Of a stretch of 64,000 bases of DNA, positions 28,436-45,877 are shown piece by piece. The stretch is from the NCBI RefSeq assembly GCF_943369875.1, contig NZ_CALROT020000004.1, positions 101,765-165,764 of the forward strand. The letters run 5' to 3'. How positions within the stretch are numbered: position 1 is the stretch's first letter; the number at the start of each line of letters is the position of its first letter. Made by a program: the position numbers and the translations under genes. The notes beneath the pieces were generated by a model that worked only from the letters and a program-made list of their open reading frames with translations, had not been told where the DNA came from and did not search any database. Source of the DNA: Vulcanococcus limneticus LL (lineage in GTDB: Bacteria > Cyanobacteriota > Cyanobacteriia > PCC-6307 > Cyanobiaceae).

Positions 28436-28512
28436 GCCCCCGGACTTGCCCTCTGATTCGTCACCGCCCGTTGGGCGGAATACGAATCAGAGGGCAAGTC
28501 CGGGGGCTTTTT
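28436..28512 (+). terminator. Very long hairpin / terminator after atpD-atpC (perfect 26-bp inverted repeat)
   Basis: GCCCCCGGACTTGCCCTCTGATTCGT (28436-28461) pairs with ACGAATCAGAGGGCAAGTCCGGGGGC (28482-28507); inner CCGCCC/GGGCGG hairpin; TTTTT follows. Confidence 0.8.
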
Positions 28513-28611
28513 GATGGGCGCGGGTGGCCAGGTGGGTGGGGGAATGGCGGAGGGGGGGCTTTGGGGTGGTGGGCCTGGGGGGACTCCTAAGCTCGGGCCG
28601 CAGGGGCTGGG

Positions 28612-29913: not shown

Positions 29914-32279
29914 CGGCCCCAGAGCTCAGCCACCAACGCCCCGCTGGCAGCCTCGGCCGGGCGGTTGTCGTCGTTGCCCATCCAGATCGCCGAAAGCAGA
30001 TCCAGCGAGGGGGAGTAACCAATGAACAGCACATCGACACCGTTGTTGGTGGTTCCGGTCTTGCCGCGGCCATCAGCGACCACAGCGGCAGCGCGCCCGG
30101 TACCGCGTTGCACCACGGCAGCCAGCAACCGATCCATATCGGCGGCGATCTCGGGCTTGATCAACTGGCGCGCCTGCTCACCGATCGGCACCGTGACGCT
30201 GCCGGATGGGCAATCGCTGAGGCGACGGATCGAGGAGCACATGCCCAGATCCACGATTCGCTTCACGCCATGCAGCGGCACGGATCGTCCGCCGTTGGCA
30301 ACCACGGCATAGGCACGGGCCATCTCATACAGCAGCGTTTCACGACCACCGAGCATCGTGTTGTAATCAGCATCCAGAGGATTGCTGATACCAAGGTCCC
30401 GTGCCCGTTTGACAACCTGAGCAAGGCCAGCCCGCTCCCCGAGCCGCAAGGCCACAACGTTTTCCGACAAGGCAAAGCCGTCAATTACCGTAGCCAAACC
30501 ACCCGAAGAACCAGCTCCATGACTGCAACCAGCCACATAACTCAGCGGCGCACAGGAGATTGAATCTCCCACCTTCACGCCAGCCTCAAGGGCGGCGATG
30601 AAGGGAAACAATTTAAAGGTAGAACCAGGCTGACGCAAAGCCTGGACCCGGTCAAAACTTGATCGACCGTAATCCCCCCCACCCACATAAGCGAGGATTT
30701 CTCCGGTACTGGGTCTGACACTGATCAGAGCCCCCTGCGCAAGACCGACACCTGCAGCCTGGCCATCCAGAAACCTACGCAGCTGCTGCTGAGCAAGAGC
30801 TTGCAAAGCGGGGTCAATAGTACTCTCAACGTAGTAGTTCCCACCCGAATCTTCATTCAAATTCAGGCCAAACCTTACACCCTCCAATTCGCTGATCACA
30901 TAATCACTGAAATAGGGATAAGCCTTGGTTGCGCTTTCCCGACAAGAGGAGGAATCGATGTTCAAAGGCTTGCGCTTGGCATCCGCCAGCACTTGGTCGG
31001 CCTGGGGGCCGTAGCCCAGAAAACCCTGTTCATGCATCAACTGCAGGACCAGGTTGCGACGGTGCACCGGCAACCATTCACCGTCCCGCAGAGCTTTCAC
31101 CCTCTGCCGATCGCCCTCACTCAGATTTCCCTTGCCCTGTTGACGCAGGCGCTCCTCCAACGCAGCGGCTTCTTGCCATGGTTGCGGCGCATAACAAGGG
31201 CTATAGCCATTGGGACTCGGCAGCAACCCCACCAGAAATGCCGACTGAGCCAGATCCAGCTGACTGGCCGAACGCCGGAAGTAGATCTGAGCGGCCTGCT
31301 CAAAACCATCAGTACCGAGACCGAGATGAGCCCGGTCCAGATACATCTTCAGGATCTGATTCTTGCTATATCCAACCTCAAGCTGCAACGCCACCCACAG
31401 CTCCCGCAGTTTGCGGGTGAGGCTGTAGTCCCGACCAACATCGGCATAGTAGAGACGCGCCACCTGCTGGGTGAGACCACTACCGCCGCCGCTGCCCAGC
31501 AATGCCGATCGGAACGTGCCGAACAGGTCAAGGCCACTGTTCCAACCGAAGCGTGCCTCCTCCGAGGCAATCAACGCCTGACGAAGATGCAGCGGATAGC
31601 TGGCCAGGGATGGCAGGGCCGTTGCCGAACCCTGCTTGGCATCCACCTGACTGCCATCGCTGGCAAAGATCTTCACCGGCCCGGCGATGGAGCGGATCTT
31701 CGAGCCGCCTGCCACCGTGGCCGCCGCCAGCATGCCGCTCACCAGGAGTGCCGAGCTCACCAGGCTGCCGATCCCAAGCCAGTGAATCGCCTGCTCAAGC
31801 GCACTGCGGGGATGGTGGTAGCGCAGGACGGGTGCATCACCCTTCAGCGGAGAGCCCAGCCAAACCGCATCGCCATCTCGCAGGCTGATCGCCTTGATGC
31901 GCCGGTCGCGGTGGAACAGACCGTTGGCGGAGTTGAAATCCTCCAGGGTGAAGTCGCGGTCACTCGCGCGGGCACGCTCGAGGATCGCGTGCACGCGACT
32001 CACGCCCGCCACATCCACCGGAAGCTCCGTGCCTGGATCGCGGCCGATGCGCACGCGCCCCGCACCCAGCACCAGGCGGCTGATCCGCTGCTGCCCCTGC
32101 CAGAGCTCAGCAACAGCCTGACGCTGGCGGAGATCATGCCAGGCCTGGAAGAGCGCACCACGCCTGCCAGCGCCGGCCAGGCTGCCGCGGCCACGCACAG
32201 CCGCAAGCAACTGGCGCCAGGCTTGGCGGCGACCCATGGGGGGGGCGGAAGTCTCCTGCTCCACCGTGGTCTGCTCCAT
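29874..32279 (-). CDS. FHA-domain bifunctional class A penicillin-binding protein (transglycosylase + transpeptidase)
   Basis: FHA IGRD...VSRVHA...NSANG; one TM; GT51 SEEARF, GGSGLTQQV, RKLRE, KNQILKMYL; transpeptidase RQPGSTFK (SxxK), SEN, KTG. Confidence 0.9.
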   Translation of the reverse strand: MEQTTVEQETSAPPMGRRQAWRQLLAAVRGRGSLAGAGRRGALFQAWHDLRQRQAVAELWQGQQRISRLVLGAGRVRIGRDPGTELPVDVAGVSRVHAILERARASDRDFTLEDFNSANGLFHRDRRIKAISLRDGDAVWLGSPLKGDAPVLRYHHPRSALEQAIHWLGIGSLVSSALLVSGMLAAATVAGGSKIRSIAGPVKIFASDGSQVDAKQGSATALPSLASYPLHLRQALIASEEARFGWNSGLDLFGTFRSALLGSGGGSGLTQQVARLYYADVGRDYSLTRKLRELWVALQLEVGYSKNQILKMYLDRAHLGLGTDGFEQAAQIYFRRSASQLDLAQSAFLVGLLPSPNGYSPCYAPQPWQEAAALEERLRQQGKGNLSEGDRQRVKALRDGEWLPVHRRNLVLQLMHEQGFLGYGPQADQVLADAKRKPLNIDSSSCRESATKAYPYFSDYVISELEGVRFGLNLNEDSGGNYYVESTIDPALQALAQQQLRRFLDGQAAGVGLAQGALISVRPSTGEILAYVGGGDYGRSSFDRVQALRQPGSTFKLFPFIAALEAGVKVGDSISCAPLSYVAGCSHGAGSSGGLATVIDGFALSENVVALRLGERAGLAQVVKRARDLGISNPLDADYNTMLGGRETLLYEMARAYAVVANGGRSVPLHGVKRIVDLGMCSSIRRLSDCPSGSVTVPIGEQARQLIKPEIAADMDRLLAAVVQRGTGRAAAVVADGRGKTGTTNNGVDVLFIGYSPSLDLLSAIWMGNDDNRPAEAASGALVAELWGRYMAAVARARAAA

Positions 32280-32335
32280 CACCACCACCACCGATCTGCA
32301 GAGTCATAGGGTAGGCAAAGCACCCCTCTGCGCCG

Positions 32336-32611
32336 TTGCCGCGTCACCATGACCCCTGGGAGTCGTTTCGCCTCTGGCTGGCTTTAACGCTTGCCCTGTA
32401 CGCCATCAGGGCGATCTTCGCAGCCCGGTTGCCCGGAGCCATTCCCGGCTGGATTCTGCTGCTGATGGTTCTGGTGAGTGTTGTGATGGCGGCGAAGGCC
32501 CTGCTGTTCCCCGGCAGGGTCATCCCCTACCGAGAGGGCGACGGCGGCTGGTGGACCGACGTGAGCGACGACTGGCGCCTGTGGTGGCAACGCCGGCGGC
32601 AGGGGCGATGA
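32336..32611 (+). CDS. Small two-TM hypothetical protein
   Basis: TTG start; two hydrophobic helices; Trp/Arg-rich tail; stop overlaps the next ATG (ATGA). Confidence 0.6.
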   Translation: MPRHHDPWESFRLWLALTLALYAIRAIFAARLPGAIPGWILLLMVLVSVVMAAKALLFPGRVIPYREGDGGWWTDVSDDWRLWWQRRRQGR

Positions 32612-33372
32612 GCACCACGGCCCAACTGCACCTGCGCGACACCCCCAGCAAGCGGCTGGCGCTGCAGAGCGGCCAACCGCTGACCATCGGCAGCGCCAGC
32701 AACAACCGCCTGGCCCTGGTGAGCCAGCCGGGTGTATCCCCTCACCATGCGGTGGTGCGTTACACCGCCAGCAACGGCTGGGTGGTGTGCGACTGGCAGA
32801 GCAGCGATGGCACCTATCTGGAGGGGGAGCGAATCCGACGCTGCCGCCCCCTGAGCGATGGGGATGAGATCCGTCTGGGGCGGGATGGACCGGTGCTGGT
32901 GTTCAACCTGGAGACGCCCGCTCCGACGGAGGCCCCAGCGTCCAAGGCCCCCGCCCATGCGGCATCGGCGCAAGCCGCACCGAGCCCTGGCACGCGAACA
33001 CCACAGGGGACCAGTGCTGCGCCACGAACGCCGCCGCCTCGCACGATCGACATCGACGGCACCACCGTGCCCGTGAACCAGATCCGATCGGCGGTGGTGC
33101 TCAGCGAACCCCTCTACCCGAAGATCTTCAGCTGGTGGGTGCTCGCCTGCCTGGGTGGCCTGCTGCTGCTGCCCTTCCCGCTGCTGTTCTGGCCATTGGA
33201 GCTGGCGGCTCTGTGCGGCTGGATTGTGCTGGGCTCCCGCAAGAGCCACACCCTGTTGATCGTCCAGCACGACGGCCAGGCGCAGCGACGTGCCTTTGCC
33301 AACCGGGTGACCGCTCTCTCACACCGGAACGGCATCCGCAAGGCCATCGGTCAGAGTCTCGAGAACCCCTGA
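32608..33372 (+). CDS. FHA-like domain protein with a C-terminal two-TM hairpin domain
   Basis: LTIGS...VSPHHAVV...SSDGTYLEG...LSDGDEIRLG; Pro/Ala linker; beta-TM-TM-beta tail reminiscent of DUF6232 (low confidence). Confidence 0.8.
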   Translation: MSTTAQLHLRDTPSKRLALQSGQPLTIGSASNNRLALVSQPGVSPHHAVVRYTASNGWVVCDWQSSDGTYLEGERIRRCRPLSDGDEIRLGRDGPVLVFNLETPAPTEAPASKAPAHAASAQAAPSPGTRTPQGTSAAPRTPPPRTIDIDGTTVPVNQIRSAVVLSEPLYPKIFSWWVLACLGGLLLLPFPLLFWPLELAALCGWIVLGSRKSHTLLIVQHDGQAQRRAFANRVTALSHRNGIRKAIGQSLENP

Positions 33373-33379
33373 GGACCCC

Positions 33380-34732
33380 GTGACCTGGATACTGCCGGAA
33401 GGCGCCTGGATGCAATTCGAAGGCCTGAGCAGCCCCGTCCAGGTGTTGCGAGGCCTGGGCGGGGGCACCCAGGGGCAGGTGTTTGAGGTGGCGGTGGGCG
33501 GCGAGCGTCTGGCGCTCAAGTGGTATCTGCCCAGCTGCCTGGAGAGAGATCCGCACCTGGAACGGAGGCTGCTGGAGAGCATCCGCGCCACCGCACCCAG
33601 TCGTGCCTTCCTCTGGCCGATCACGCTGCTGCGCCCCTCCGCCTCCAGCCTGCCGTTGATCCGTAGCAAGAATCCCGGCTTCGGCTATCTGATGGAGCTG
33701 CGGCCGCCTCAGTTCGTCGGCGCGGTGGAGCACTACGGCGGTCGGCTCGAGATCAGTCTGCGCCAGGCCCTCAGGGCCAGCTTTTTCCTGGCCGAGGCCT
33801 TTCACGCGCTGCACAGCAAAGGCCTTTGTTACAAGGACATCTCTCTTGGCAATCTGTTCCTGGAGGCGGCAACGGGTCGCATCCTGATCTGCGATAACGA
33901 CAACGTGGATGTGGATGGCCGCGACCTCGGCAGCGTGCTCGGCACCCCGGGATTCATGGCTCCCGAAATCCTGATGAGACGGGGCAGACCCGGTGCCAAC
34001 AGCGATCTCTTCTCGATCGCCGTACTGCTGTTCATGCTGCTGACCCGACACCATCCACTCCGCGGACAGATGGAGCTGGCCATTCGCTGCCTGGATGAAC
34101 CGGCGCGCCGCAAGCTCTACGGGGAGGATCCGGTGTTCATCTTCGACCCACAGGACTGCCGAAACCGGCCCGATCCAACGGAGCACGCTGCCGCTCTGCT
34201 GCTCTGGCCGATCTATCCGATACCCCTTCAGGAGCTGTTCATTCAATCCTTCTGCACAGGCATGCATGCCCCCAGCCAACGGGCCCTCACCGGGCAGTGG
34301 ATGGAGAAGCTGGCCGCCGTGCTCGACCAGCGCCAGACCTGTCCCGCCTGCGGCTCGGAGCACTTCAGTTCCCAGACCACCTGTTGGTATTGCGCCGAGC
34401 CCCTGGGCATCGCTGCGGCGTTGCGCATGGCCAACGGTCGGGTGATGGCCTGCACCGATAACGAGCTACATGCCCACCACTTCAACAGCCTGGAGGCACC
34501 GCGCCTCGATGAGCCGATCGCGCGCGTGGTGGCCCACCCCAGCGACCCCAGGCTGCTTGGACTGCGAAACCTGAGCGATCAGCCCTGGCGGGCCACGGCT
34601 GCGGGGGGCCAGCAGCATGCCGTTGCCCCAGGCAAAACATGTAATCTCGCAGCGCTTCTCCAGCTCGACACACCCTGGGGTGCGGTGCGCCTGGAGCCCG
34701 CCAGAAGCGAGCACCTCAGCACGCGATCCTGA
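33380..34732 (+). CDS. Soluble Ser/Thr protein kinase of the YegI / TerY-P type with a Cys4 zinc ribbon
   Basis: LGGGTQGQV, LALKWY, CYKDISLGN, ICDNDN in place of DFG, GTPGFMAPE, SDLFS; CPACG...CWYC. Confidence 0.92.
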   Translation: MTWILPEGAWMQFEGLSSPVQVLRGLGGGTQGQVFEVAVGGERLALKWYLPSCLERDPHLERRLLESIRATAPSRAFLWPITLLRPSASSLPLIRSKNPGFGYLMELRPPQFVGAVEHYGGRLEISLRQALRASFFLAEAFHALHSKGLCYKDISLGNLFLEAATGRILICDNDNVDVDGRDLGSVLGTPGFMAPEILMRRGRPGANSDLFSIAVLLFMLLTRHHPLRGQMELAIRCLDEPARRKLYGEDPVFIFDPQDCRNRPDPTEHAAALLLWPIYPIPLQELFIQSFCTGMHAPSQRALTGQWMEKLAAVLDQRQTCPACGSEHFSSQTTCWYCAEPLGIAAALRMANGRVMACTDNELHAHHFNSLEAPRLDEPIARVVAHPSDPRLLGLRNLSDQPWRATAAGGQQHAVAPGKTCNLAALLQLDTPWGAVRLEPARSEHLSTRS

Positions 34733-35466
34733 TGCCCGGCTTTCCAAACGTTCGTCTGGCCAACCGGCCGCTGCATTTCTTCTATCTGTGCGATTGCTCC
34801 GGCTCGATGGCCGCCCAGGGCAAGATGCAGTCGCTCAACCAGGCGATTCGGCAGTCGCTGCCGGGCATGGCCAACGTTGCCCGCGACAACCCGGAGGCCC
34901 GGGTGCTGGTAAGGGCTGTGGCCTTCTCCGATCAGGCCAGCTGGCATATCGCTGAGCCCACCTCGGTGGAGACACTGCAGTGGCGTGACCTTGAGGCCGG
35001 AGGGGTGACCGCCATGGGCGACGCCCTGAGGCTGGTGGCCGAGCAGCTGCACACCCCACCGATGGAGGAGCGAGCGCTTCCCCCCGTGCTGGTGCTGATC
35101 TCCGATGGCCAGCCCACCGACGATTTTGAAGCCGGCCTCGAACGGCTGATGCGCGAACCCTGGGCTCAGAAGGCCGTGCGCCTGGCAATCGCCCTCGGCC
35201 ACGATGCCGATCTGGAGGTGCTGCAGCAGTTCATCGGGCCCGCACCCGCCAACCAGCGCGAGCGTTCCCCGCGCAGGCCGCTGCAGGCCAGCAACGCAAC
35301 CTCCCTGGCCCAGTACATCCAATGGGCCTCGACGGCGGTGGTCGGAGCGGCCTCGATGCCCGTGAGCCGGATGGCTGACTCCCAGGACACCGGCAGTACC
35401 CCTCTGCCGGATCTGCCTCCCACCGAAATGGATCCGATCGGCGACGTTGGCCCCATGGTCTGGTGA
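34732..35466 (+). CDS. terY: TerY-like von Willebrand factor A domain protein
   Basis: RPLHFFYLCDCSGSM (MIDAS DxSxS), GGVTAMGDAL, VLISDGQPTDD; lies between a kinase and a PP2C. Confidence 0.85.
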   Translation: MPGFPNVRLANRPLHFFYLCDCSGSMAAQGKMQSLNQAIRQSLPGMANVARDNPEARVLVRAVAFSDQASWHIAEPTSVETLQWRDLEAGGVTAMGDALRLVAEQLHTPPMEERALPPVLVLISDGQPTDDFEAGLERLMREPWAQKAVRLAIALGHDADLEVLQQFIGPAPANQRERSPRRPLQASNATSLAQYIQWASTAVVGAASMPVSRMADSQDTGSTPLPDLPPTEMDPIGDVGPMVW

Positions 35467-36980
35467 CTGAGGTGTCTGGGTCCTGGAGCTGGTCCGCACC
35501 GCTGCATCGCAGCCGCTGCGGCGCCTCCCATCAACGCCGTGGGGTGCCCTGCCAGGACGCCTCCTCGTGCGCCAGTCTGCGCAGTGCCGATGGACTGCCG
35601 GTGGGCCTGATGGCCGTGGCCGACGGCCACGGCGGCAGCCGCTACTGGCTCAGTGATGTGGGAAGCCGGCTGGCTTGCGACCTGGCCCTGCAGCTGGCCG
35701 CCAAGGATCTGGCCAGGCGTCCTCTGAGCACCCCTGGAGCGGATGCGCTCGGGGCTGTTCGGCAGTGGCTGGCAGATGAGCTGCCCTCTCAGCTGGTAGC
35801 GGCCTGGCAAGAAGCCATCCAGGCCGACTGGCAACAACGGGACCTGCCGCCGGAGCATCAGGGCGAGTCGTTCTCCGCCCAGACCTACGGCAGCACCCTG
35901 GCCCTGGTGGTGCTGACTCCCCACTGGTGGGCCCACACCGGGCTGGGCGACTGGGATCTGGTGCTGCTGAGCGACCATCAGCCCGATCAGCTCATCAGCC
36001 AGGAGGCCGACAAAGGCCACCAGGGTGAGGCCACGGAGAGCCTCTGCCTGCCGAGCGCCAGCCGCTGCTTTGCCTCCCGCACCGCCGTGTACCCCCTCAG
36101 CGGCGACCAGCGCCAGGCCTGCGGGCTGGTGCTCAGCACCGATGGCATCCGCAAATCCTGCGCCACCGACGCCGACCACCTGGCTCTGAGCCGCTACCTG
36201 CTGGAGGAAGCCCAGACGCACAAGGCCATCGCTGCGGGCAGCTCGGAGCGGCTGGACACCAGCCTTGATCGCATCAGCCGCGAGGGCAGTGGCGACGACG
36301 TCAGCGTGGCCCTGGCCTGCTTCGGGAGCCTGCAGCCCGGGGCGGTGCCATCGCAACCGGTGCCAATGGCGGCTTTGCCCGATCTGACGCCGCTACCACG
36401 GCTGCCGGAACATCCCAGACTTGCGGCGGAGCAGCCGAGTCCCCAATCCAGACGGGGGCGACGGCAAGCCAGACCAACAGCAGGCCCAGCTCTCCTGCGA
36501 ATTGGCGTGGGACTCGCGACGGGCAGCGCCCTGCTTGTAGCTGCCTGGGTTTGGTTGAGACCGGCACTCTTGCGGCCCTTCTCCACGCCAACCACGTTCG
36601 CCGAGCCCAGCCAGGACATCCCGGCGCGACTGACGGCCACTCAGCAAAACAGCATTCAGCTGGAAATCAAAAGGCTCTGCAGGATGGAGCAGGCCCTGAT
36701 CGAATCCACACTGAACCAACGCAAGGAAATTCCCAAGCACAGCCGTGAGCAACCCAGACACATCGAACGACTCCTGGCCGACAACGATTGGCAGGGCAGC
36801 TTGATTGCCCTCAACCGCCCAGGCAGCACACAGCAAACGCAACTTGCAGCCTTGTGCCCTGCTCTCAACAAAGCATTGAAAGCCTACTGGGCAAAACACA
36901 TTCAGCCTCAGCAGGGCAGAGAGTTCAGTAAGCAAGCCGCACCCACAGACGACCAGCCCACCGTCTCAACAGATCCATGA
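35463..36980 (+). CDS. YegK-like PP2C-family phosphatase with a TM helix and a C-terminal extracytoplasmic domain
   Basis: GASHQRRGVPCQDA, AVADGHGG, GLGD, LSTDG, SGDDVSV; TM LRIGVGLATGSALLVAAWVWL; GTGA overlap with the vWA gene. Confidence 0.88.
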   Translation: MTEVSGSWSWSAPLHRSRCGASHQRRGVPCQDASSCASLRSADGLPVGLMAVADGHGGSRYWLSDVGSRLACDLALQLAAKDLARRPLSTPGADALGAVRQWLADELPSQLVAAWQEAIQADWQQRDLPPEHQGESFSAQTYGSTLALVVLTPHWWAHTGLGDWDLVLLSDHQPDQLISQEADKGHQGEATESLCLPSASRCFASRTAVYPLSGDQRQACGLVLSTDGIRKSCATDADHLALSRYLLEEAQTHKAIAAGSSERLDTSLDRISREGSGDDVSVALACFGSLQPGAVPSQPVPMAALPDLTPLPRLPEHPRLAAEQPSPQSRRGRRQARPTAGPALLRIGVGLATGSALLVAAWVWLRPALLRPFSTPTTFAEPSQDIPARLTATQQNSIQLEIKRLCRMEQALIESTLNQRKEIPKHSREQPRHIERLLADNDWQGSLIALNRPGSTQQTQLAALCPALNKALKAYWAKHIQPQQGREFSKQAAPTDDQPTVSTDP

Positions 36981-37045
36981 ATCCAACCTGCTCCGCCTCC
37001 ATTCAGCCTCCTCAATCCCCACGCGAGCACGGCGGCCAGTTATGA
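36977..37045 (+). CDS. 22-aa bridging mini-ORF (MNPTCSASIQPPQSPREHGGQL)
   Basis: ATG overlaps the PP2C stop (ATGA) and its TGA overlaps the next ATG (ATGA); may be coincidental. Confidence 0.3.
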   Translation: MNPTCSASIQPPQSPREHGGQL

Positions 37046-37986
37046 CGGACTACGCACTGGGCAGCGCGATCCGAGCAGCCCTGGATCAACCCGGATCATC
37101 AGGCTCCCGAAGCGTTGAGTCTCGCCTGCCGCAGCTGGTGGCTGCCGATCAGCAGGATCTGCTGCCGGCCCTCAGCTTCCTGCTGCGCTCGCGCGCCATG
37201 GCCAGCGCCCTGGCCCAGCCCAGCGGCCGTGATGACGGCCGCATCGCCGCCCGACTACTGGCGGAGGTGGAAGCCCAGTACAGCCCGGCCATCTGCCAGA
37301 GGCTCCAGGGGGTGATCCAAGGGATGGTCGGGATGCCCGAGCGACAGGCGCCGCACCCCAGCCCCGCCTGGAGCCCGGTGCCACCGGCTCAGGCGGTGGT
37401 CAACCAGCCGGCGGTCACCACCCTGGTGACCACGAGCAGCAGCGGCAGCAGCTGGGTGGTGGCTCTGCTCTGCTTCCTGATCGGCATCGTGGGGAGCGGG
37501 CTGCTGTTGTTGCTCTGGCAGCAGCAGCAGCAGCAGGGCAAACAAGCCGTCAATGTCAGCGCGACGCCCCCCGCACCGACGAACCCACCGGAGCCGCAGC
37601 CGTCCAGCCCAGTGGCACCGGCTAGTGAACCAAGCGCCGCACCGGCCGGCACCGCAGCGATCGATGCCGCCGTGGCCAGCATTCAGGAGCTCTATGCCGC
37701 CCTCTCCGCCAAGGATTATGCAAGCGCCTCCAACCACTACGGCGGCCAGGCCGCCGATCAGTTTGATCCCACCTTCTTCAACCAATTCGAACGGGTGACC
37801 GTGGCGGATCTCCGCCAGACCAGCAGCGCCGGCTCAACGATGAATTTCGAAGGCGTGGTGACCTTTGTCTATCCGAATGGCGATGTTCAGACCGAATCCC
37901 GTAGCTTCACGATGGATACCCGCACCACGCCCGTGCTGATCACCAGCAGCGAATTCGGACGGGTGCTTCAGCCCCGCCGTGGCTAA
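37042..37986 (+). CDS. Island paralogue P1: N-terminal helical domain, TM, Pro linker, NTF2/SnoaL-like extracytoplasmic domain
   Basis: DYALG...YSPAICQRL; TM WVVALLCFLIGIVGSGLLLLLW; C-terminal IQELYAALSAKDY...QFDPTFFNQFERV...ESRSF. Confidence 0.8.
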   Translation: MTDYALGSAIRAALDQPGSSGSRSVESRLPQLVAADQQDLLPALSFLLRSRAMASALAQPSGRDDGRIAARLLAEVEAQYSPAICQRLQGVIQGMVGMPERQAPHPSPAWSPVPPAQAVVNQPAVTTLVTTSSSGSSWVVALLCFLIGIVGSGLLLLLWQQQQQQGKQAVNVSATPPAPTNPPEPQPSSPVAPASEPSAAPAGTAAIDAAVASIQELYAALSAKDYASASNHYGGQAADQFDPTFFNQFERVTVADLRQTSSAGSTMNFEGVVTFVYPNGDVQTESRSFTMDTRTTPVLITSSEFGRVLQPRRG

Positions 37987-38026
37987 TTAGCCGGCCGGTA
38001 GGCTCAACGCACTCACAGCTGCGCCC

Positions 38027-38986
38027 TTGGCTTCAACCTCTGACCACGCGCTGGGGCAACGACTGGCCCAGCTGATCCAGCAGAGCGGAGACTCAGCCTT
38101 TGAAGGCGGTGTGCTCAGCCGCCGGTTGCAGGCTCAGCTCCAGGATCTGCTCGGTGCCGAGACCTCGCTGCTCAACCCGCTCCGGGATCTGCTGCAGCGA
38201 CCCAGCTTCCGGCAGCTCTTCAGCCTGGGCAGCCAGGGACAGCTCCTCCATGCTCGCGACGCCCTGCTGCGGGATCTGGCTGACGTCTACAGCCCAACAG
38301 TGCTGAACAGGCTGGATGCGGTGCTGCAGGGGTGCCTCAACCTGCACGGGGCCGCTGCCGCCACCTGGCCGGCAGCGGCTCCCCCATCCACCGTCAGGAG
38401 CGCAGCACCAGCCGGCCCGTCAGCCTCCTGGTCATCAGCACCCAGCAGCCAACCCCCTCCTGTCGCCTCCGCGCCCCCCACGGTGGTGACCATCCCCACC
38501 CATGCGCAGGGGCCGACGTCCATCCTGATCGCGCTGCTGGCCCTGATCTGCGGCGCGCTGGTGATGGCCCTGGCGGGGGTGCTGATCGGCAACCGCAGCA
38601 CCAACGGCACCACCAGCCCACCGGCCGCCACGAAGCCGAGCAGCCCTCCAGCACCGACTGCTCCCCTCATCCAACCGGCACCCGAACCGCCGCGGTCAGA
38701 GCCGGAGGCCGCAACGGCCGGCCAGTGGCAGGCTTGCGTGGATTACGGCGGCAACGATGGTCCACCTCCCCAGCCCGGCCAAACATGGTGGCCGGTGGTG
38801 GGCCCCGGCGAAGCCCTCGAAGCCTCCCGCCTGCATTGCCGCGGCGACGCCTTCACCAATGCCAACGGCAATGCGCAGGTCGCCAGCTTTCGCGATCGCG
38901 ATACAGCAGCAGCCTTCGCCCAGCAGCTCACCGAAGACAGCAGTCATCCCTACAGCTTCTGGGTTGGCGACCCCACGCAGCGCTGA
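38027..38986 (+). CDS. Island paralogue P2: N-terminal helical domain, TM, SPOR-like C-terminal domain
   Basis: DHALG...YSPTVLNRL; TM ILIALLALICGALVMALAGVLI; QVASFRDRDTAAAFAQQL resembles the SPOR beta-alpha unit. Confidence 0.75.
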   Translation: MASTSDHALGQRLAQLIQQSGDSAFEGGVLSRRLQAQLQDLLGAETSLLNPLRDLLQRPSFRQLFSLGSQGQLLHARDALLRDLADVYSPTVLNRLDAVLQGCLNLHGAAAATWPAAAPPSTVRSAAPAGPSASWSSAPSSQPPPVASAPPTVVTIPTHAQGPTSILIALLALICGALVMALAGVLIGNRSTNGTTSPPAATKPSSPPAPTAPLIQPAPEPPRSEPEAATAGQWQACVDYGGNDGPPPQPGQTWWPVVGPGEALEASRLHCRGDAFTNANGNAQVASFRDRDTAAAFAQQLTEDSSHPYSFWVGDPTQR

Positions 38987-40171
38987 TCAGGCGCAGCTGC
39001 GCCGCACCTGCGTATAGACCTGCTCAAACCGATCCCACCGGAAGCTGCGGGGGTCGTAGCGACTGCGGCTGCGATCCACCGCGGCATGCGTCGTGATCCG
39101 CTCCAAGGGGATCCCATAGAGAGCCTGCCAGCGCAAGATCTGTTCAGCCAAGGCTCGGTATTGCGCTTCGGTGTATCCCGAGTGCCCGCCCTGATCGCCA
39201 CGGCCATCCTCAGGACTCTCCAGGCTGACATGCAAAGCAATGTTGTTGATGGATGGTGGATTGTTTGCCGAAGTCTTGAAGCTGAGATCCCCAAAAGCAG
39301 AATCGCCAGCGCCATAGGCACGGGCCTGGTCGGGCACGATGCGCACTCTCTCTCCATCACGCCCGATCAACACGTGATAACTGCCCTGGGCCGAATCATT
39401 GGCCTGATCACGCTGGAAGAGCTCAACCGTTGAGGGCAGATCCAGAACCGTTTCATGCAACACGATCAGTGCAGGTTCTGCCGGGATGGCAGCACCGCTG
39501 GCGTCCTGCGTCTGCCGTTTGCCAAAGTTGCTGGCCGCCGCCAGCCGCTGGGTCTCCTGCTGGGGTGACCCCAGACGGGCGCAACGGTCCAGGCCATCCA
39601 CCGCCACGGGCGTGGCTGGCGCGCGCAACGATGAACCTGCGGTGCCCGTGGCCGGAGAACCTGCCGGCGCAAGGGCCGGATCGATCGCTGGGAGGGGTGG
39701 TGCCGCCACTCGAAACGCGGTCAGTCCCAGCCAACTGAGGCCCGCGCCGATGGCCACACCCACGCCCAGCCCCAGCAGCCAGCTGCGTAGATCGGGCTCC
39801 TGCCGATCTGCGGACAGCCCCGAGGCAGGAGCTGAATCCCCACCCTCCTGCCAGCCCTCCAGCAAGCCATCGAGGAAGGCCTGCTGCGGCGACACGCTGT
39901 CGGCCGGAAGGCTCCGACCAGCGCCATCCAGCAGCTCCTTCAGGGCCTGAGCACGGGCGCCATCCTGATCCGAAGCCAGCAGGGTGACGCAGGCCGGGTG
40001 GCGCAGCAGGGTGATCAGGCATTCCCGCAGCTGAGGCTGATCAGCCAGCAAGTGCTGCAACGCATGGGCGATGGCAGCCGGTACCTCCTCCGACGCCAGT
40101 CCACGCCTGCGCGCCGATAACACCAGGCCTCGAGCCAGGGAGAAGAGATCGGAGGCCTGCTGAGAGCGCAT
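38987..40171 (-). CDS. Membrane-anchored N-acetylmuramoyl-L-alanine amidase (Amidase_2) with a diverged island N-terminal domain
   Basis: IVLHET, GSYHVLIGRDG, SLES, YTEAQYRAL, ITTH...YDP Zn-ligand pattern; TM WLLGLGVGVAIGAGLSWLGL. Confidence 0.88.
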   Translation of the reverse strand: MRSQQASDLFSLARGLVLSARRRGLASEEVPAAIAHALQHLLADQPQLRECLITLLRHPACVTLLASDQDGARAQALKELLDGAGRSLPADSVSPQQAFLDGLLEGWQEGGDSAPASGLSADRQEPDLRSWLLGLGVGVAIGAGLSWLGLTAFRVAAPPLPAIDPALAPAGSPATGTAGSSLRAPATPVAVDGLDRCARLGSPQQETQRLAAASNFGKRQTQDASGAAIPAEPALIVLHETVLDLPSTVELFQRDQANDSAQGSYHVLIGRDGERVRIVPDQARAYGAGDSAFGDLSFKTSANNPPSINNIALHVSLESPEDGRGDQGGHSGYTEAQYRALAEQILRWQALYGIPLERITTHAAVDRSRSRYDPRSFRWDRFEQVYTQVRRSCA

Positions 40172-40305
40172 CAGGAGTCAGCCTGGTGAAACGGGAGAGA
40201 GGAACCAAGGCGCCGCCCCGGAGCAGCACAGGCCACCCAGGAGCGCGCATAGGGCAGCGCCCAGAAGTACTGCGGAGCTGCTCAGCCCCAGGTTCACGCC
40301 GATCC

Positions 40306-40311
40306 TATACT
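40306..40311 (+). promoter_or_regulatory. Possible -10 element for P3
   Basis: TATACT in an AT-rich spacer 23 bp before the TTG at 40334. Confidence 0.35.
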
Positions 40312-40333
40312 GATAACAGCGACAAAAAAGTCC

Positions 40334-41353
40334 TTGACAGGCAGCCCTGACTATCAACTTGGCAAGAGAATTGCACAGTTTCTCAATCAGAATGGCAGCA
40401 ACAACAATCCCGACAGCCGACTGATCAACAGCCTGCCAGACCTGATGGGGAGTGATCCATCTCTACTCCCACCCTTACGGGACATGATTCTGCGTCCCAG
40501 CTTGCGCAGGCTGCTGCACGAGAGCCAACCATCCCTCCTGCGGAGTGGACGCGACAGCCTGATTGCAGATCTGCAATTTACCTACAGCAGCACCATCATC
40601 TTTCGACTGCAACGTGTGCTGAGTGGCATCCTCAACCTGCCGGATATCGACGAACCGCGCACTCACGGACAGTGGGTCGATAACCCGCCCCCCCACTCAC
40701 AGGATTGGCCGCCCTCCAGCCACAGCGTTTCAGCACAACCCACCCCCAGCACCACAGTCACCTACGCCATTCAGACGCCATCCCAGGGCCAAAGCGGGCT
40801 GACTGCCGCGATGATCGCCCTGTTGGCCCTCATCTGTGGGGGAGGGCTCGTGGGCTTGATCTGGCTGCTGACCGGCCAATCCCCGCCGACACGCCAGGAT
40901 TCGCCTTCAACAACCCAGGCTCCGACCACGCCCTCACCAGCTGCCCCCGCACCACGTCAGCTGCAGGAGCCCACCCCTGCCCCCTCCAATCCCTGGGGGC
41001 CACCAGAGGAGTACAAATTCGGCCAGGGCCCCAGCCAGACCTATCCAGACACCTGTGCCTTCTCCAAGACGGACGCCCGTGGCGAACGGACGCTGGAGGA
41101 TAAATCACAACTGGAATTCTGGGCTTGCCGTGATGAAGGCGGCGACACCAATACCGGTTATGCCGTGATCTGGGGTGACGGCAAACGCACGGTCTACCGC
41201 TTCATGAACGGCGGGACTGGCGTGGTACAGGGAACCAACGGCCAGGATGTACCGATGTCTTGGCGCAACGACACCCACAACGGCCAGAAGATCATCGCCA
41301 TCAGCCATCAGGACGGGGCAAACTCCTGGATTCCTGGCCATGTGGACGACTGA
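40334..41353 (+). CDS. Island paralogue P3: N-terminal helical domain, TM, unknown beta-rich extracytoplasmic domain
   Basis: DYQLG...YSSTIIFRL; TM MIALLALICGGGLVGLIWLL; C-terminal domain with two Cys and alternating beta-strand patterns. Confidence 0.75.
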   Translation: MTGSPDYQLGKRIAQFLNQNGSNNNPDSRLINSLPDLMGSDPSLLPPLRDMILRPSLRRLLHESQPSLLRSGRDSLIADLQFTYSSTIIFRLQRVLSGILNLPDIDEPRTHGQWVDNPPPHSQDWPPSSHSVSAQPTPSTTVTYAIQTPSQGQSGLTAAMIALLALICGGGLVGLIWLLTGQSPPTRQDSPSTTQAPTTPSPAAPAPRQLQEPTPAPSNPWGPPEEYKFGQGPSQTYPDTCAFSKTDARGERTLEDKSQLEFWACRDEGGDTNTGYAVIWGDGKRTVYRFMNGGTGVVQGTNGQDVPMSWRNDTHNGQKIIAISHQDGANSWIPGHVDD

Positions 41354-41362
41354 ACGCGAGCC

Positions 41363-42513
41363 ATGAACGACCATCAGCTTCGCGTCCTGCTGCGAGAGCG
41401 GATCATGGCCGACCTGCAGAGCGGCATTCCGTGCGAGGGCCAGCACCTGCAGCTGTTGATGGGCGACCCTGCGGCGAGCTTCAGATGCCCCTGCTGCCAG
41501 CCCTGCGCTATCTGGTGAGGAGCCCGGCGTTCAGCAACGCCGTGGAGCAGAGGCCAGCGCTGACCGGGGAAACCCGCCTGCACCTACTGCACGAGGAACT
41601 TGAGAAGGCGTTCACCGTTGCGATCTGCCGACGCATGACGGCGGTGCTGCGGGACCTGCTCGGGCTGCCCGCAGGGGAGATCGCAGCGTTGGGCAAGGCC
41701 AGCGCACCGCCCACCACCCCTGGGCCACAGCCGATGCCAAGGCCTCCGCAACCGCTGCACCGACCGCTGCGGTCCATCGCCGGGCAGTCAAGCCAGTCGA
41801 CGTGAGCGATCCCACAGGGGGGTGAACTGCCCGCGGGCTGGCCGATCGAGGAGTTGATCCGGGAGCAGCCCGGCTGCGGGCGCGCCGCCGCAGGCGGCAG
41901 GCGATCTGTGGCGGTGGTGCTCAGCTTCATGGCCGAGGTGCTGGTGGTGGGCGTCCTGGGAGCGCTGGGCTGGATGGCACAGATCAGCCGTCAACCACTG
42001 CAGCCCCTTCACAGCAGCCAAGGCACCAGCCAGCAGCCGCTGGAAACCGAAGCAGCTCCACTCCAACCACAGGAGCCCGCGGCCAGCCCGCCTTCCCCGG
42101 CACCTGATCTGGGCACACAGGAGGCCAACCCTGACCAGGCGATCACCAGGGCTCAAAAGCTCTATGCCGAGCTCTCGAGCGGCAAGATGGATGCCGTGCG
42201 CCAACTGTTCAGCCCCGCCAGCCTCAGGCAGCGCCAGAGCCAGATCACCGGGCTGGCCACGGGTCAGCTCCAGGCCCGCCAGCTCCAGCGCAACGCCGCC
42301 ACCGATCCGCTCGGGGCCCTGCTCGGCACGGCCTTCCTGGCCCGGGAGCCGCAGCAGACGCCCCGGCCGCTCCGCGCCCTGGGGGCCAGCCCGGAGCTGG
42401 AGGCGGCCCTGGCCGCGACCTGGCCGGCCGGACCGGCGGACAGGAGGATGGGACCACGGCCCGCCCAGGCCGGCCCCACCGGCTCCAGCCGGCCCACGGC
42501 CCCACCGCCATGA
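41363..42513 (+). pseudogene. Island paralogue P4: frameshifted, interrupted and chimeric
   Basis: MNDHQL...MGD then a frameshift near 41468 into ELQMPLLPALRYLV; in-frame TGA at 41803-41805; TM RSVAVVLSF; NTF2-like domain breaks off at FSPA (~42219) and continues into unrelated high-GC sequence. Confidence 0.75.
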
Positions 42514-43556
42514 ACGACTACCAGCTCGGCGCGGCCCTGCGCGCCCAGGTGATCCAGGACCGCCAGCGCGGCCTGCCCGTGGAGGGGCGGCGGCTGCAGG
42601 CGCTGGTGGGCGATCTGGGCGGCGCCGAGCAGGCCGGCCTGCTGCCGGCCCTGCGTTACCTGGTGTTCTGCCCCGCCTTCCACAGCGCGGCGAGCCAGGC
42701 CGAGCCCCTGGCGGATCCGCGGCTGCTGACGCGGCTGATGCAGGAGCTGCAGGAGGTGTTCACCCCCGCCATCTGCCAGCGGATGCAGCGGGTGGTCGAG
42801 GGGCTGCTGGGCCTGCCCGCCACACCGGTCGCGGGTGCAGCCGCGGCTGTCGCCGCCGCACCGGTGCCGGCCCCCGTGCCGGAGCCAGTCGGTCTGGTGG
42901 CGATGCCCGTGCCGCTCGACGATCCGCGCCCGCCCACGTCGGAGCAGGCCCTGGCGCTGCTGGCCGCGAACCGCAGCGGCGCCGGCGGCGGCGGCAGCCG
43001 CTCCCTGGTGGTGGTGCTCTCCTTCCTCTGTGGCGGCCTGCTGGTGGGGCTGCTGGGCCTGCTGGTGTTCCTGCAGATGGCCGGCCGCCGCCAGCCCCAG
43101 CTCGGCACCAGCGAGGCCCGCCCGCCCGTACCTGTGGCCCAGCCGGTGACACCGCCGGCGACCCCGACCCTGCCGGAACCCGAGCCCGGCCCGCCCACCA
43201 GCGACGAGGCGGCCAGCAGCGAGGCCGCCAACCTGAATCAGGCCATCTCCCGGGTGCAGGAGCTCTACGGGGCCCTCTCCAGCAAGAACTACGACGCCGC
43301 CCGCGGCTTCTTCGCCGGAGCCGCCGCCGACCAGTTCGATCCCACCTTCTTCAACCAGTTCGAGCGGGTGAGCGTCGCCGAGCTGCGGGAGAGCGGCCGC
43401 AGCGGCAGCACCCTCACCCTGGAGGGCCAGGTGACCTTCACCTATCCGGATGGCACCAGCCAGCTGGAGAGCCGCAGCTTCACCGTCGACACGGCCACAA
43501 CCCCGGCGGTGATCACGGACAGTGCCTTCGGCCAGGTGCTCAAGGGGCGCCAGTGA
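42510..43556 (+). CDS. Island paralogue P5: N-terminal helical domain, TM, NTF2/SnoaL-like domain (host-like codon usage)
   Basis: DYQLG...FTPAICQRM; TM LVVVLSFLCGGLLVGLLGLLVFL; QFDPTFFNQFERV identical to P1. Confidence 0.82.
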   Translation: MNDYQLGAALRAQVIQDRQRGLPVEGRRLQALVGDLGGAEQAGLLPALRYLVFCPAFHSAASQAEPLADPRLLTRLMQELQEVFTPAICQRMQRVVEGLLGLPATPVAGAAAAVAAAPVPAPVPEPVGLVAMPVPLDDPRPPTSEQALALLAANRSGAGGGGSRSLVVVLSFLCGGLLVGLLGLLVFLQMAGRRQPQLGTSEARPPVPVAQPVTPPATPTLPEPEPGPPTSDEAASSEAANLNQAISRVQELYGALSSKNYDAARGFFAGAAADQFDPTFFNQFERVSVAELRESGRSGSTLTLEGQVTFTYPDGTSQLESRSFTVDTATTPAVITDSAFGQVLKGRQ

Positions 43557-43611
43557 GGACTGGGGCCCTGCGCTGAACCGCGGCCCGTGGAAGCCTGGAG
43601 CGGCGCCCATG

Positions 43612-43635
43612 AAAAAAGCCCCCGGACAGGGGGCT
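43612..43635 (-). terminator. Rho-independent terminator of psrp-3
   Basis: AAAAA-AGCCCCC-GGACA-GGGGGCT on + strand. Confidence 0.75.
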
Positions 43636-43664
43636 CGGCGTCGCCGTCAGCGGAGTGCCCGGAC

Positions 43665-44153
<489 letters not shown>

Positions 44154-44184: not shown

Positions 44185-45048
44185 GTGGCCCCTGCCCTGA
44201 CGCCCAGCTCACCGGCCAGCCTGCCCGTCGGCCCGTCCAGCGGCGGTGGTCCCGCGGCCGTTCTGCTGTTCGACATCGACGGCGTGATCCGCGATGTGGG
44301 CGCCAGCTACCGCCGCGCCATCGTGGAGACCGTGCACCGGTTCAGCGGCCGGCGGCCCGAACCGGCGGCGATCGATGCCCTCAAGGCCGAGGGCCGCTGG
44401 AACAACGACTGGGAGGCCTCGCTCGAGCTGCTGCGCCGGGGCGGCCTGGGCCAGCCCGGCCAGAGCCCCCTGCCGGCCTTCGCCGACCTGGTGGCGGTGT
44501 TCAACGGCTTCTACTTCGGCGGCGACCCCGACGGGGATCCGTCCGCCTGGCGGGGGTTCATCGGCCAGGAGCCGCTGCTCGTGGAGCGGCCGTTCTTCGA
44601 GGTCCTCAGCGCCGCCGGCGTGGCCTGGGGCTTCGTGAGCGGCGCCGAGCCGCCGTCGGCCCGCTTCGTGCTGGAGGCGCGCCTGGGCCTGGCCGATCCG
44701 CCCCTGATCGCCATGGGCGACGCCCCCGACAAGCCCGATCCCACCGGCCTGCTACGCCTGGCCCACGTCCTGGCCGGCCCCCTGGGCCCCGAGGCGCCCC
44801 CCGTGGCCTACCTGGGCGACACCGTGGCCGACGTGCTCACGGTGCAGCGGGCCCGGGAGCAGCAACCCGGCCAGCGCTTCCTCAGCCTGGCCGTGGCCCC
44901 GCCCCACCTGCAGCAGCCGGGCCGGGAAGCCGAGCGCTGCCGCTACGAGGCCCAGCTGCTGGCCGCCGGCGCGGATGCGGTGATCCCCTCCACCGACCGG
45001 GTGGCGGAGCACCTGCCGTTGACCCCCAGGGACAGCCAGCCCGGATAA
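44185..45048 (+). CDS. HAD-superfamily hydrolase (TIGR01548-like)
   Basis: LLFDIDGVIRDV..SYRRAI, WNNDW, KPDPTGL, YLGDTVADV. Confidence 0.88.
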   Translation: MAPALTPSSPASLPVGPSSGGGPAAVLLFDIDGVIRDVGASYRRAIVETVHRFSGRRPEPAAIDALKAEGRWNNDWEASLELLRRGGLGQPGQSPLPAFADLVAVFNGFYFGGDPDGDPSAWRGFIGQEPLLVERPFFEVLSAAGVAWGFVSGAEPPSARFVLEARLGLADPPLIAMGDAPDKPDPTGLLRLAHVLAGPLGPEAPPVAYLGDTVADVLTVQRAREQQPGQRFLSLAVAPPHLQQPGREAERCRYEAQLLAAGADAVIPSTDRVAEHLPLTPRDSQPG

Positions 45049-45090
45049 GGGACCGCCCTGCCCTCACCGGGATCGCCACGGCCTGACCGA

Positions 45091-45789
45091 TCAGGCGCCC
45101 TCGCGCCCGGGCAGCGCCTCACCCTCCAGAACACAGAGGCACCGGAAGCGCAGGGCCATCAACTGGTCGTAGACGGGGTTGATCTTGCACATCGGCGGGA
45201 TGTGGGCCAGCTTGCGGCCGAACAGCACCAGATCCCGCTCGAACGGGCACTGGGCGGGGATCAGCCGCACCAGCATCCGCGCCACCGCCGCATCCCGGGG
45301 CTCGATCGCCTCCAGCCAGCGCCGCAGCGGATCGAGCAGCCGATGGTTCGGCGCGGGCTCGTCGCCGCAGTCGCTCTCCAGATGGGCCACGAGCTCCTGG
45401 CCCACCGCCAGCAGCTGGCTCCAGTGCCGCAGCAGATCCACCTCCAGGGGGCTGAGGTAGCCATCCGCCAGGGCCACCACCACGGCGCTGCGCAGGAACT
45501 CCTCGGCGAAGGGGGTGCCGATGCCGAGGCGATGGGCCAGGGCCTCATCGCCGGGCAGCCCCAGGTTCTCCAGGGTCTCGCCGGGCACCTCGCGCTCCAG
45601 TTGTGCCTCGAGCTGATGCCGCTCGGCCTCGGCAAGGTGGCCATCCACCAGGGCCAGATGCCGCAGGGCACCGAGCCACACGCGGCGGCGAGCGACGGGA
45701 CAGTCCGGGGAGCTGTATGGAGCCCGCTCAGGGGCACGGTCCCTGGTGCCGGCCTGGGGGCCGGGGTTCTCAACGCGGGGTGCTGTCAT
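45091..45789 (-). CDS. TerB-like / Mo-dependent nitrogenase C-terminal domain protein
   Basis: ALVDG...E and ALADG..SPLE TerB-like repeats; IPAQCPFERD...HIPPMCKINPVYDQL..LRFRCL. Confidence 0.85.
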   Translation of the reverse strand: MTAPRVENPGPQAGTRDRAPERAPYSSPDCPVARRRVWLGALRHLALVDGHLAEAERHQLEAQLEREVPGETLENLGLPGDEALAHRLGIGTPFAEEFLRSAVVVALADGYLSPLEVDLLRHWSQLLAVGQELVAHLESDCGDEPAPNHRLLDPLRRWLEAIEPRDAAVARMLVRLIPAQCPFERDLVLFGRKLAHIPPMCKINPVYDQLMALRFRCLCVLEGEALPGREGA

Positions 45790-45877
45790 CGCCGGATCCA
45801 CGCGGGGCGTGGAGCGTCTGGGGCCGAAGGCCTGGGTGGACGCTATGCAGCCCGCGGGGCCGGCGCAATGGGCCGGC

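Follow-up and report, generated by a model that had tools for sequence, protein, structure and literature searches.

We describe here a short region (positions 41363-42513) of a 64,000-nt stretch of the picocyanobacterial contig NZ_CALROT020000004.1. The whole stretch is called the window, and all coordinates refer to it. The region lies within a locus that encodes a Ser/Thr kinase, a PP2C phosphatase and a family of related membrane proteins. An earlier reading of the DNA, made from its sequence only, saw in it a chimeric pseudogene and proposed that one version of the operon had been overwritten by another. We conclude that the region is very probably a recombination scar rather than a gene, left when a foreign allele overwrote the native kinase/phosphatase locus.

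The locus is preceded by atpB, atpE and a rhomboid-like gene. A gene on the reverse strand encodes a class A penicillin-binding protein (PBP) with FHA, transglycosylase and transpeptidase domains (29874-32291). It is followed on the forward strand by genes for an FHA protein (32551-33372), a Ser/Thr kinase with a putative C-terminal CxxC..CxxC zinc ribbon (33380-34732), a vWA protein (34732-35466) and a PP2C phosphatase with a transmembrane (TM) helix and an extracytoplasmic tail (35463-36980). These assignments were made with Pfam (PF13672, PP2C, E 1.4e-25; Pkinase, E 2e-14; PF00092, VWA, E 5.6e-7). Next come the genes of the membrane-protein family, which we call P1 (37042-37986), P2 (38027-38986), P3 (40334-41353), P4 and P5 (42510-43556), all on the forward strand, with a reverse-strand gene for an Amidase_2 protein (38987-40171) between P2 and P3. 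P5 is intact and is the terminal member of the family. The right-hand neighbor of the locus in all relatives is PSRP-3/Ycf65 (43665-44150, reverse strand).

A profile of the N-terminal domain of P5 matches P1, P2, P3, P4 and P5. The amidase was considered as a further member of the family and rejected, having no match to this profile. A second profile, of the P5 C-terminal domain (118 positions), matches P1 and P5 in full and P4 over positions 1-45 only. This domain has no Pfam match. In the AlphaFold2 model of P5, residues 232-345 have pLDDT values above 90 and form helices followed by four long strands. The top Foldseek matches in the PDB are NTF2-like, including 3b8l, the NTF2 domain of 7sjy, the PBP5 N-domain, ketosteroid isomerases and the CaMKII hub, with target TM-scores of 0.5-0.6 and E-values of only 2e-3. 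Based on the predicted structure, it is reasonable to assign an NTF2-like fold to the C-terminal domain of P1, P4 and P5. Neither PADLOC nor NCBIfam yielded a specific family for the vWA, PP2C or P proteins.

P4 is a pseudogene of the P family, given its homology to intact members and its disabling lesions. It consists of three pieces on the forward strand. The first begins at the ATG at 41363 and ends at a 1-nt deletion (41363-41469), the second continues in a shifted frame to a premature TGA at 41803-41805 (41470-41805), and the third encodes a TM helix, a linker rich in Pro and the initial ~38% of the NTF2-like domain (41806-42209). In tblastn searches, residues 1-35 of P5 match 41363-41467 in one frame and residues 24-275 match 41431-42231 in another (37% identity, E 1e-40). 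The frameshift that had been noticed near 41468 is the deletion at 41469/41470, where the window reads GACCC-TGC and intact orthologues (L021 and L022) read GAC CTG TGC; the TGA is also as first described. The early end of the NTF2-like domain was correctly recognized too. The profile match stops at nt 42231, the last ~60% of the domain is gone, and residues 276-348 of P5 have no match in any frame of the P4 region or the sequence that follows it (tblastn of all local proteins, E <= 10).

P4 had been regarded as a relative of P5. It is a homologue, but its nearest intact relatives are the terminal P genes of a third picocyanobacterial lineage, whose proteins (P0005-P0009) are 59% identical to P4 in a read-through search. 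At the nucleotide level, the loci of this lineage (L021-L023) are 74-76% identical to P4, up to position 42219. The best-matching intact orthologues of the P4 type (P0005, P0007, P0008, P0013 and P0015) have a complete NTF2-like domain. The GC content at third codon positions (GC3) of the P4 body is 0.78-0.82.

The same pseudogene occurs on a contig from a different JGI metagenome (L004), where it carries a further TGA and a 57-nt deletion. The P4 pieces of the window and L004 differ by 21 substitutions, distributed 9/5/7 over the three codon positions (small numbers), whereas the six substitutions in the P5 part are distributed 1/1/4 and thus fall mostly in third positions. Among the residues altered is the Tyr of an LY motif that is invariant in the family. 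From this pattern, P4 appears to be drifting neutrally. Fourteen of the 21 substitutions crowd into 84 nt (42121-42204), where identity is 83%, versus 98% elsewhere; this cluster may stem from recombination with another P allele or from local hypermutation.

Downstream of the P4 part, the reading frame continues to 42513 in sequence of very high GC content (52 of 60 nt at 42361-42420, as had been counted). This tail (42220-42513) matches the last 97 codons and stop of PP2C genes that occupy the locus in close relatives, and which we refer to as resident. In protein searches its best matches are P0001 (96% identity) and P0002 (93%), and its protein identity to L006, L002 and L004 is 91-97%. From position 42210 on, nucleotide identity is 94% to L006, 91% to L007 and 95% to L002. 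In L006 the sequence is continuous with a PP2C catalytic domain and ends in an ATGA overlap with P5. In L002, which has no nucleotide identity to the window before 42210, the frame runs upstream through RRGR and a TM helix to the end of the contig, and on the 3' side there is again an ATGA with a P5 orthologue.

The sequence-only reading had likened the tail to that of the window's own PP2C. In Smith-Waterman alignments with shuffling, this pairwise likeness is not significant (z 0.33 against the whole protein; z 1.7, p = 0.07, against its C-terminus) and, taken by itself, would have led us to discard the idea, yet the relationship is real at the profile level. A hidden Markov model (HMM) of ten distant PP2C tails, ~40-45% identical to the fragment, was searched against all 798 six-frame segments of the window and gave two matches only, the segment following P4 (E 7.5e-11, from nt 42217) and the window's own PP2C (E 5.6e-8), so that no other PP2C-tail remnant was detected among these segments. 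The tail family has the motif RxIxxLC...LSxRxxQF...DPLGALIA...LxLCPxLxxALxxxW. Of the 145 HMM positions, the fragment spans 63-136, corresponding to the C-terminal ~60% of the extracytoplasmic tail, and it lacks the TM helix and the first Cys motif. Given that positions 1-62 are missing and that P4, not PP2C, lies upstream of 42210, with no adjoining catalytic domain, TM helix or first Cys motif, the tail is a fragment of a PP2C and not a gene. The second conserved Cys is a Ser in the window, and the remnant is 12 nt (four codons) shorter than intact alleles, the missing bases lying between CGCCAGC repeats.

Base composition is consistent with this assignment, and the tail has the codon periodicity typical of coding sequence. 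In the P4 frame, GC content by codon position is 0.78/0.68/0.93 over 42220-42510 (permutation p = 2e-4) and 0.80/0.69/0.935 over 42232-42509. The GC3 of the tail is like that of P5 (0.934) and of a relative's resident PP2C, and unlike that of the P4 body.

A scan of species-representative genomes with an alignment of P1 and P5 identified 15 loci. In 13 of these the order is FHA, kinase, vWA, PP2C catalytic domain, tail homologue, P5 orthologue, PSRP-3 (reverse strand), HAD and PepP (reverse strand). It had been predicted beforehand that homologues of the tail would be C-termini of PP2C proteins encoded directly upstream of P5 orthologues, and this is what the 13 genomes have; the tail homologue is the C-terminus of a membrane-anchored PP2C open reading frame (ORF) in every case. 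Twelve of the 13 have an ATGA in which the stop codon of PP2C and the start codon of P5 overlap, and the ATGA that had been noticed in the window lies at 42510-42513. P5 is 95% identical to its orthologue in Synechococcus sp. GreenBA-s (L006), 89% to that in Vulcanococcus limneticus LL (L007) and 82% to that in L015. Synteny tables show that P1, P2, the amidase and P3 are absent from the resident type of locus. L015 (CALRKO020000014.1) is labeled 'MAG: Chitinophaga pinensis' and yet is picocyanobacterial by its PSRP-3 (99%), PepP (94%) and synteny; the bin is probably mislabeled or contaminated.

In the third lineage (L021-L023; P0005-P0009), PSRP-3 has a P4-type terminal P gene beside it, which comes immediately after a PP2C with a tail that shows only ~31% identity to the resident one. 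The PP2C-P pair at this locus thus exists in at least three deeply divergent allele classes.

The sequence-only reading had proposed that an incoming version of lower GC content overwrote the resident operon. Comparison with L006, L007 and L015 supports such a replacement and shows that it is larger than had been supposed, extending over ~29,988-42,209 and including most of the FHA-PBP gene. The flanks of the window are close to these three relatives (PepP 97, 96 and 94%, PSRP-3 99%), and atpB and the rhomboid-like gene are 100% and 95% identical to those of L006. Within the clade, identity is 93-96% for the kinase, 95-98% for the vWA protein, 78-86% for the PP2C catalytic domain, 80-88% for the FHA protein and 91-95% for the PBP. 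The corresponding values between the window and the clade are 67-68%, 82%, 51-53%, 55-58% and 71-74%, so that the window's versions from the kinase to the PBP are as distant from the clade as those of other genera, or more so. The GC content of 32551-42209 is 0.661, compared with 0.756 for the resident FHA-to-PP2C genes of L006 and 0.748 for the right flank of the window. Blastn comparisons, identity matrices, GC content and sliding-window identity all place a tract of foreign origin at 29988-42209, in which 12.2 kb would stand in place of ~6.8 kb in the closest relative. The nearest relative of this cassette is a short contig of a metagenome-assembled genome (MAG), L016, with identities of 76% (kinase), 90% (vWA) and 79% (PP2C). 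P1 (70%), P2 (64%) and the amidase (80%) are likewise present in L016, with their order preserved. P1, P2, the amidase and P3 came in with the foreign cassette.

Both ends of the tract can be placed. On the left, identity to L006 is 96-99% up to ~29,963-29,987 and 60-80% beyond, which puts the breakpoint at ~29,950-29,990, inside the 3' end of the PBP gene. This gene, whose FHA domain is N-terminal and which is transcribed divergently from the FHA-kinase-vWA-PP2C operon, remains intact as a hybrid of a native 3' end (~38 codons, up to ~29,987) and a foreign body; its product is 71% identical to that of L006, versus 95% between L006 and L007. On the right, blastn of 36345-42209 against L006, L007 and L002 gives no match, and identity begins abruptly at 42210.

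The right junction was compared at nucleotide level among L021-L023, L002, L003, L006, L007, L015 and the window, which identifies both parents of the chimera. The P4-type sequence is CTG TTC AGC CCC GCC GCG GCC GAT (intact P4-type genes read QLFSPAAADQFDP), the resident PP2C sequence is TGC GCC AGC CCC GCC AGC ATC CGC GCC AGC CTC AGG, and the window reads CTG TTC AGC CCC GCC AGC CTC AGG. Both intact P4-type genes and the resident PP2C contain the 10-nt sequence CAGCCCCGCC (42210-42219), and they read it in the same frame. Two interpretations of the junction are possible, namely a 10-nt microhomology followed by a slippage loss of 12 nt, or a 4-nt joint (CGCC) at the second repeat, with no deletion.

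We propose the following history, of which three parts are inferred: that it took a single step, how the DNA entered, and in what order the lesions arose. The ancestor would have been a picocyanobacterium of the Vulcanococcus/'Synechococcus' subcluster-5.2 type, close to strain GreenBA-s, with a locus comprising atpBE, the rhomboid-like gene, FHA-PBP (reverse strand), FHA, kinase, vWA, PP2C, P5 and PSRP-3 (reverse strand). Incoming DNA from a more distant relative of lower GC content may have carried a divergent allele of these genes along with P1, P2, the amidase, P3 and P4, and ~12.2 kb of it would have displaced ~6.8 kb of resident DNA. At the left end, homologous recombination would have taken place in the conserved 3' end of the PBP gene (~29,950-29,990). 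At the right end, an illegitimate join via CAGCCCCGCC would have connected donor P4 (...QLF-SPA) to resident PP2C (...LCA-SPA), in frame by chance. Such a join would have deleted the last ~73 codons of P4 and all of the resident PP2C except its last ~100 codons, and P5 would have kept the sequence that natively precedes it, including the ATGA overlap. The truncated P4 would presumably have been unable to fold its NTF2-like domain. We assume that the 1-nt deletion and the TGA, which are common to all copies seen, arose after the truncation, though they could be older than the transfer. Later, the PP2C remnant may have lost 12 nt between the CGCCAGC repeats, and in this strain the conserved Cys.

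Some observations weigh against this reconstruction. A search for a close donor found none, the best relative of the cassette (L016) having only 76-90% protein identity, and intact P4-type genes are only 59% identical. The lineages with an intact P4-type gene have it directly behind PP2C and not behind P3. The two possible readings of the junction (10 nt plus a deletion, or 4-nt CGCC) count here as well, as does the fact that the evidence from metagenomes and sequencing runs consists of assembled contigs.

Homology-facilitated illegitimate recombination (HFIR) is the most likely mechanism, because it would account for one homologous anchor and one microhomology joint, with resident DNA lost and foreign DNA gained. 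A single event of this kind is favored over a history in two steps, in which the cassette first took a place beside the resident locus or within it, for example in tandem or through double homologous recombination, so that the two versions existed together, and a microhomology deletion later cut away the 3' end of P4 along with the resident genes from FHA through kinase and vWA to PP2C, sparing the PP2C tail. This would yield the same end product, which is a further point against the one-step history. The short direct repeat at the junction is as expected of a spontaneous deletion, and a second small slippage deletion (12 nt) lies right alongside. The two-step history nevertheless needs one more event, and no tandem of both complete versions was found in the 15 genome loci and the metagenome contigs examined. 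We consider it unlikely, though a serious candidate.

The ORF from 41854 or 41917 to 42513 could be a functional fusion of a TM helix, an NTF2 stub and a PP2C tail, or could be kept open for translational coupling into P5 through the ATGA. The fusion is in frame, open in both the window (199-219 aa) and L004 (182 aa), and predicted by gene callers. The 57-nt deletion in L004 preserves the frame, and the tails of the window and L004 differ by two substitutions only. In addition, a promoter scan of 41200-43700 found no promoter-like site, the P4-P5 interval included, so P5 probably depends on read-through from upstream. On the other hand, substitutions in the P4 part show no third-position bias (7/4/6), and most change an amino acid, including the invariant Tyr of the LY motif. 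The tail is without the first Cys motif, and the second Cys is lost in the window. Because all six frames are largely open at 80% GC, the open frame is no evidence of function, and an in-frame join has a prior chance of 1 in 3. We therefore regard a functional product as improbable.

The chimera occurs in nature outside the window's assembly. L004 has the same junction and the same TGA together with its own private mutations. When metagenome contigs were scanned with the L002 fragment, only L004 came up again among the matches listed. A 12-kb Logan contig spans 34241-46275 at a uniform depth of ~368, one contig of run X3 crosses the junction, and in runs X2 and X3 there are contigs that pass over the frameshift site with no gap. 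In runs X2, X4 and X8, contigs match the window from 42216 on and are unlike it upstream (in X2 and X8 the upstream sequence reads as resident PP2C), and all three runs also contain P4 fragments. The chimeric and resident alleles are thus polymorphic within natural populations, in the same lakes. In X2 the contig with the resident PP2C tail and P5 has a depth of ~20, versus ~5 for the P4 fragments.

The presence of both alleles in the same metagenomes is what one would expect if the region were an assembly or binning artefact, a chimeric contig of two co-occurring strains. The window's apparent origin in a metagenome or enrichment sample also speaks for this possibility. Only 10 nt are common to both at the right junction, which is too little for an assembler to collapse them, and the independent L004 assembly has the same junction with different private mutations. 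The even depth of the Logan contig and the X3 contig across the junction also argue against an artefact. An origin in assembly, one of the outcomes that the sequence-only reading had said would count against it, is highly improbable and we consider it effectively refuted.

The idea that the tail is what decay has left of the NTF2-like domain that P4 itself once had, or else an alternative C-terminus native to P4-type proteins, has the unbroken reading frame in its favor and is ruled out by the absence of a match to residues 276-348 of P5, the halt of the NTF2 profile at position 45, the full NTF2-like domain of the five best-matching intact orthologues and the 94-95% nucleotide identity of the tail to resident PP2C genes.

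Metatranscriptome contigs from three runs cover the boundary of the tail and P5 (42312-42813) at low depth and PSRP-3 (43665-44150) at high depth, and none lies over P3 or P4. Given that the source populations may carry the intact allele, and the contigs may come from it, these data are silent on expression of the chimera.

There are other signs of variation at and around the locus. The contig L003 (positions 1-296; the same contig was found in run X6) has a resident PP2C tail that is cut ~60 nt upstream of the window's junction and preceded by 296 nt of unrelated sequence; the first 360 nt of this contig have a GC content of 66%. These 296 nt have no blastn or tblastx match to any locus compared and no Rfam match, and L003 could represent a third allele, that is another insertion, or a contig chimera. 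The interval between HAD and PepP (45037-45875 in the window; 12489-14300 in L006) is a second small variable spot. It includes a TerB/Mo-nitro_C gene (45091-45801) that is 67% identical in L006, where there is ~1.2 kb of extra sequence. L015 has no gap in this interval, and a contig of ERZ1426837, from a third lineage, has a FitA-PIN toxin-antitoxin pair there. About 250 bp in the spacer between atpE and the rhomboid-like gene (28444-28692) are present in the window and L007 and absent from L006.

HFIR is documented in Acinetobacter, in Streptococcus pneumoniae, in Pseudomonas stutzeri and in the conjugation of E. coli (PMC3240628; references in PMC5361080). The event proposed here would be similar in that the 3' end of the PBP gene serves as the homologous anchor and a GC-rich microhomology (10 or 4 nt) makes the other end. 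It differs in that it was deduced from natural genomes, and in that the 'foreign' DNA is not unrelated to what it replaced but a divergent version of that locus. HFIR has also been proposed for the displacement of type VI secretion (T6SS) effectors, with downstream immunity genes kept and 3' remnants orphaned (PMC5361080). The effector-immunity modules of the Vibrio cholerae T6SS, and the C-terminal displacement seen in Rhs and contact-dependent growth inhibition (CDI) systems (PMC5361080), resemble the locus in several ways. These include a conserved 5' anchor, a resident upstream gene displaced with the downstream gene kept behind the incoming module, orphaned 3' remnants and an array of related genes (here P1, P2, P3, the P4 pseudogene and P5). 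Unlike in those systems, there is no evidence of toxin-immunity pairing between PP2C and the P proteins, and the window has a single scar. Given this single scar, and that L016 already has P1, P2 and the amidase, most of the P array seems to have arrived ready-made.

Replacement-type flexible genomic islands of marine and freshwater bacteria are another relevant comparison. Their classic representatives are surface-glycan clusters, whose exchange by double homologous recombination leaves no scar. The locus described here is similar in having divergent multi-gene alleles at the same position between conserved flanks, which co-occur in a population and deviate in GC content. It is dissimilar in having an illegitimate join at one end and a Ser/Thr signaling module as its content.

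The gene content also recalls the TerY-P triad, in which a vWA protein and a PP2C are joined by a Ser/Thr kinase that carries a zinc ribbon (Anantharaman et al. 2012; Gao et al. 2020; both summarized in PMC10542128). As in the triad outlined there, genes for vWA, PP2C and a CxxC..CxxC kinase lie side by side. Like the TerY-P kinases so described, the kinase has a zinc-ribbon motif, CPAC...CWYC, after its catalytic domain (aa 319-338; 34334-34393), where Zn_ribbon_3 matches with an E-value of only 0.013. Relative to the same outline, the PP2C here is membrane-anchored with an extracytoplasmic tail, and the locus adds FHA proteins, the FHA-PBP and the P-family membrane proteins. The vWA protein had been labeled TerY from its sequence, a name that is not established. 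Its vWA-TerF-like match (E 0.023) is below the cut-off, and among PADLOC defense models there is no match for the vWA or PP2C proteins and only generic matches for the kinase.

The actinobacterial cell-wall and division locus fhaA-fhaB-pstP-rodA-pbpA-pknA-pknB (PMC6554272) likewise brings together genes for a PBP, a Ser/Thr kinase, a membrane-anchored PP2C and FHA proteins; the grouping of FHA-PBP, FHA proteins, membrane PP2C and amidase described here recalls it. The actinobacterial locus is without vWA and P-family genes, and the kinase described here is without PASTA domains. The match of the FHA protein to FhaB falls far under the family cut-off. We draw the comparison as an analogy only.

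From a broader perspective, we could speculate that the locus beside PSRP-3 is a hypervariable, horizontally exchanged cell-envelope module of picocyanobacteria, possibly for TerY-P-like phage defense or surface sensing, in which P genes pile up by sequential displacement like the orphan immunity genes of T6SS and Rhs loci. We regard this as doubtful. If true, the chimera of P4 and the PP2C tail would be the first molecular fossil of such sequential displacement, and resident P genes would have been kept because they are still useful without their cognate PP2C.

The event itself exemplifies, with good documentation, a process that was already known. What distinguishes it is that both parents of a natural illegitimate junction are named to the nucleotide, and that chimeric and ancestral alleles share lakes. 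For annotation, 41363-42513 is better marked as a pseudogene and a gene remnant than as the hypothetical proteins predicted by gene callers. The scar is a clear illustration from nature of the way in which a resident multi-gene allele gives way to a divergent one if homologous recombination finds sufficient similarity in a single flank only. In addition, it hints that the locus of FHA-PBP, FHA, kinase, vWA, membrane PP2C and NTF2-type proteins is conserved, fast-evolving and strain-variable in freshwater picocyanobacteria.

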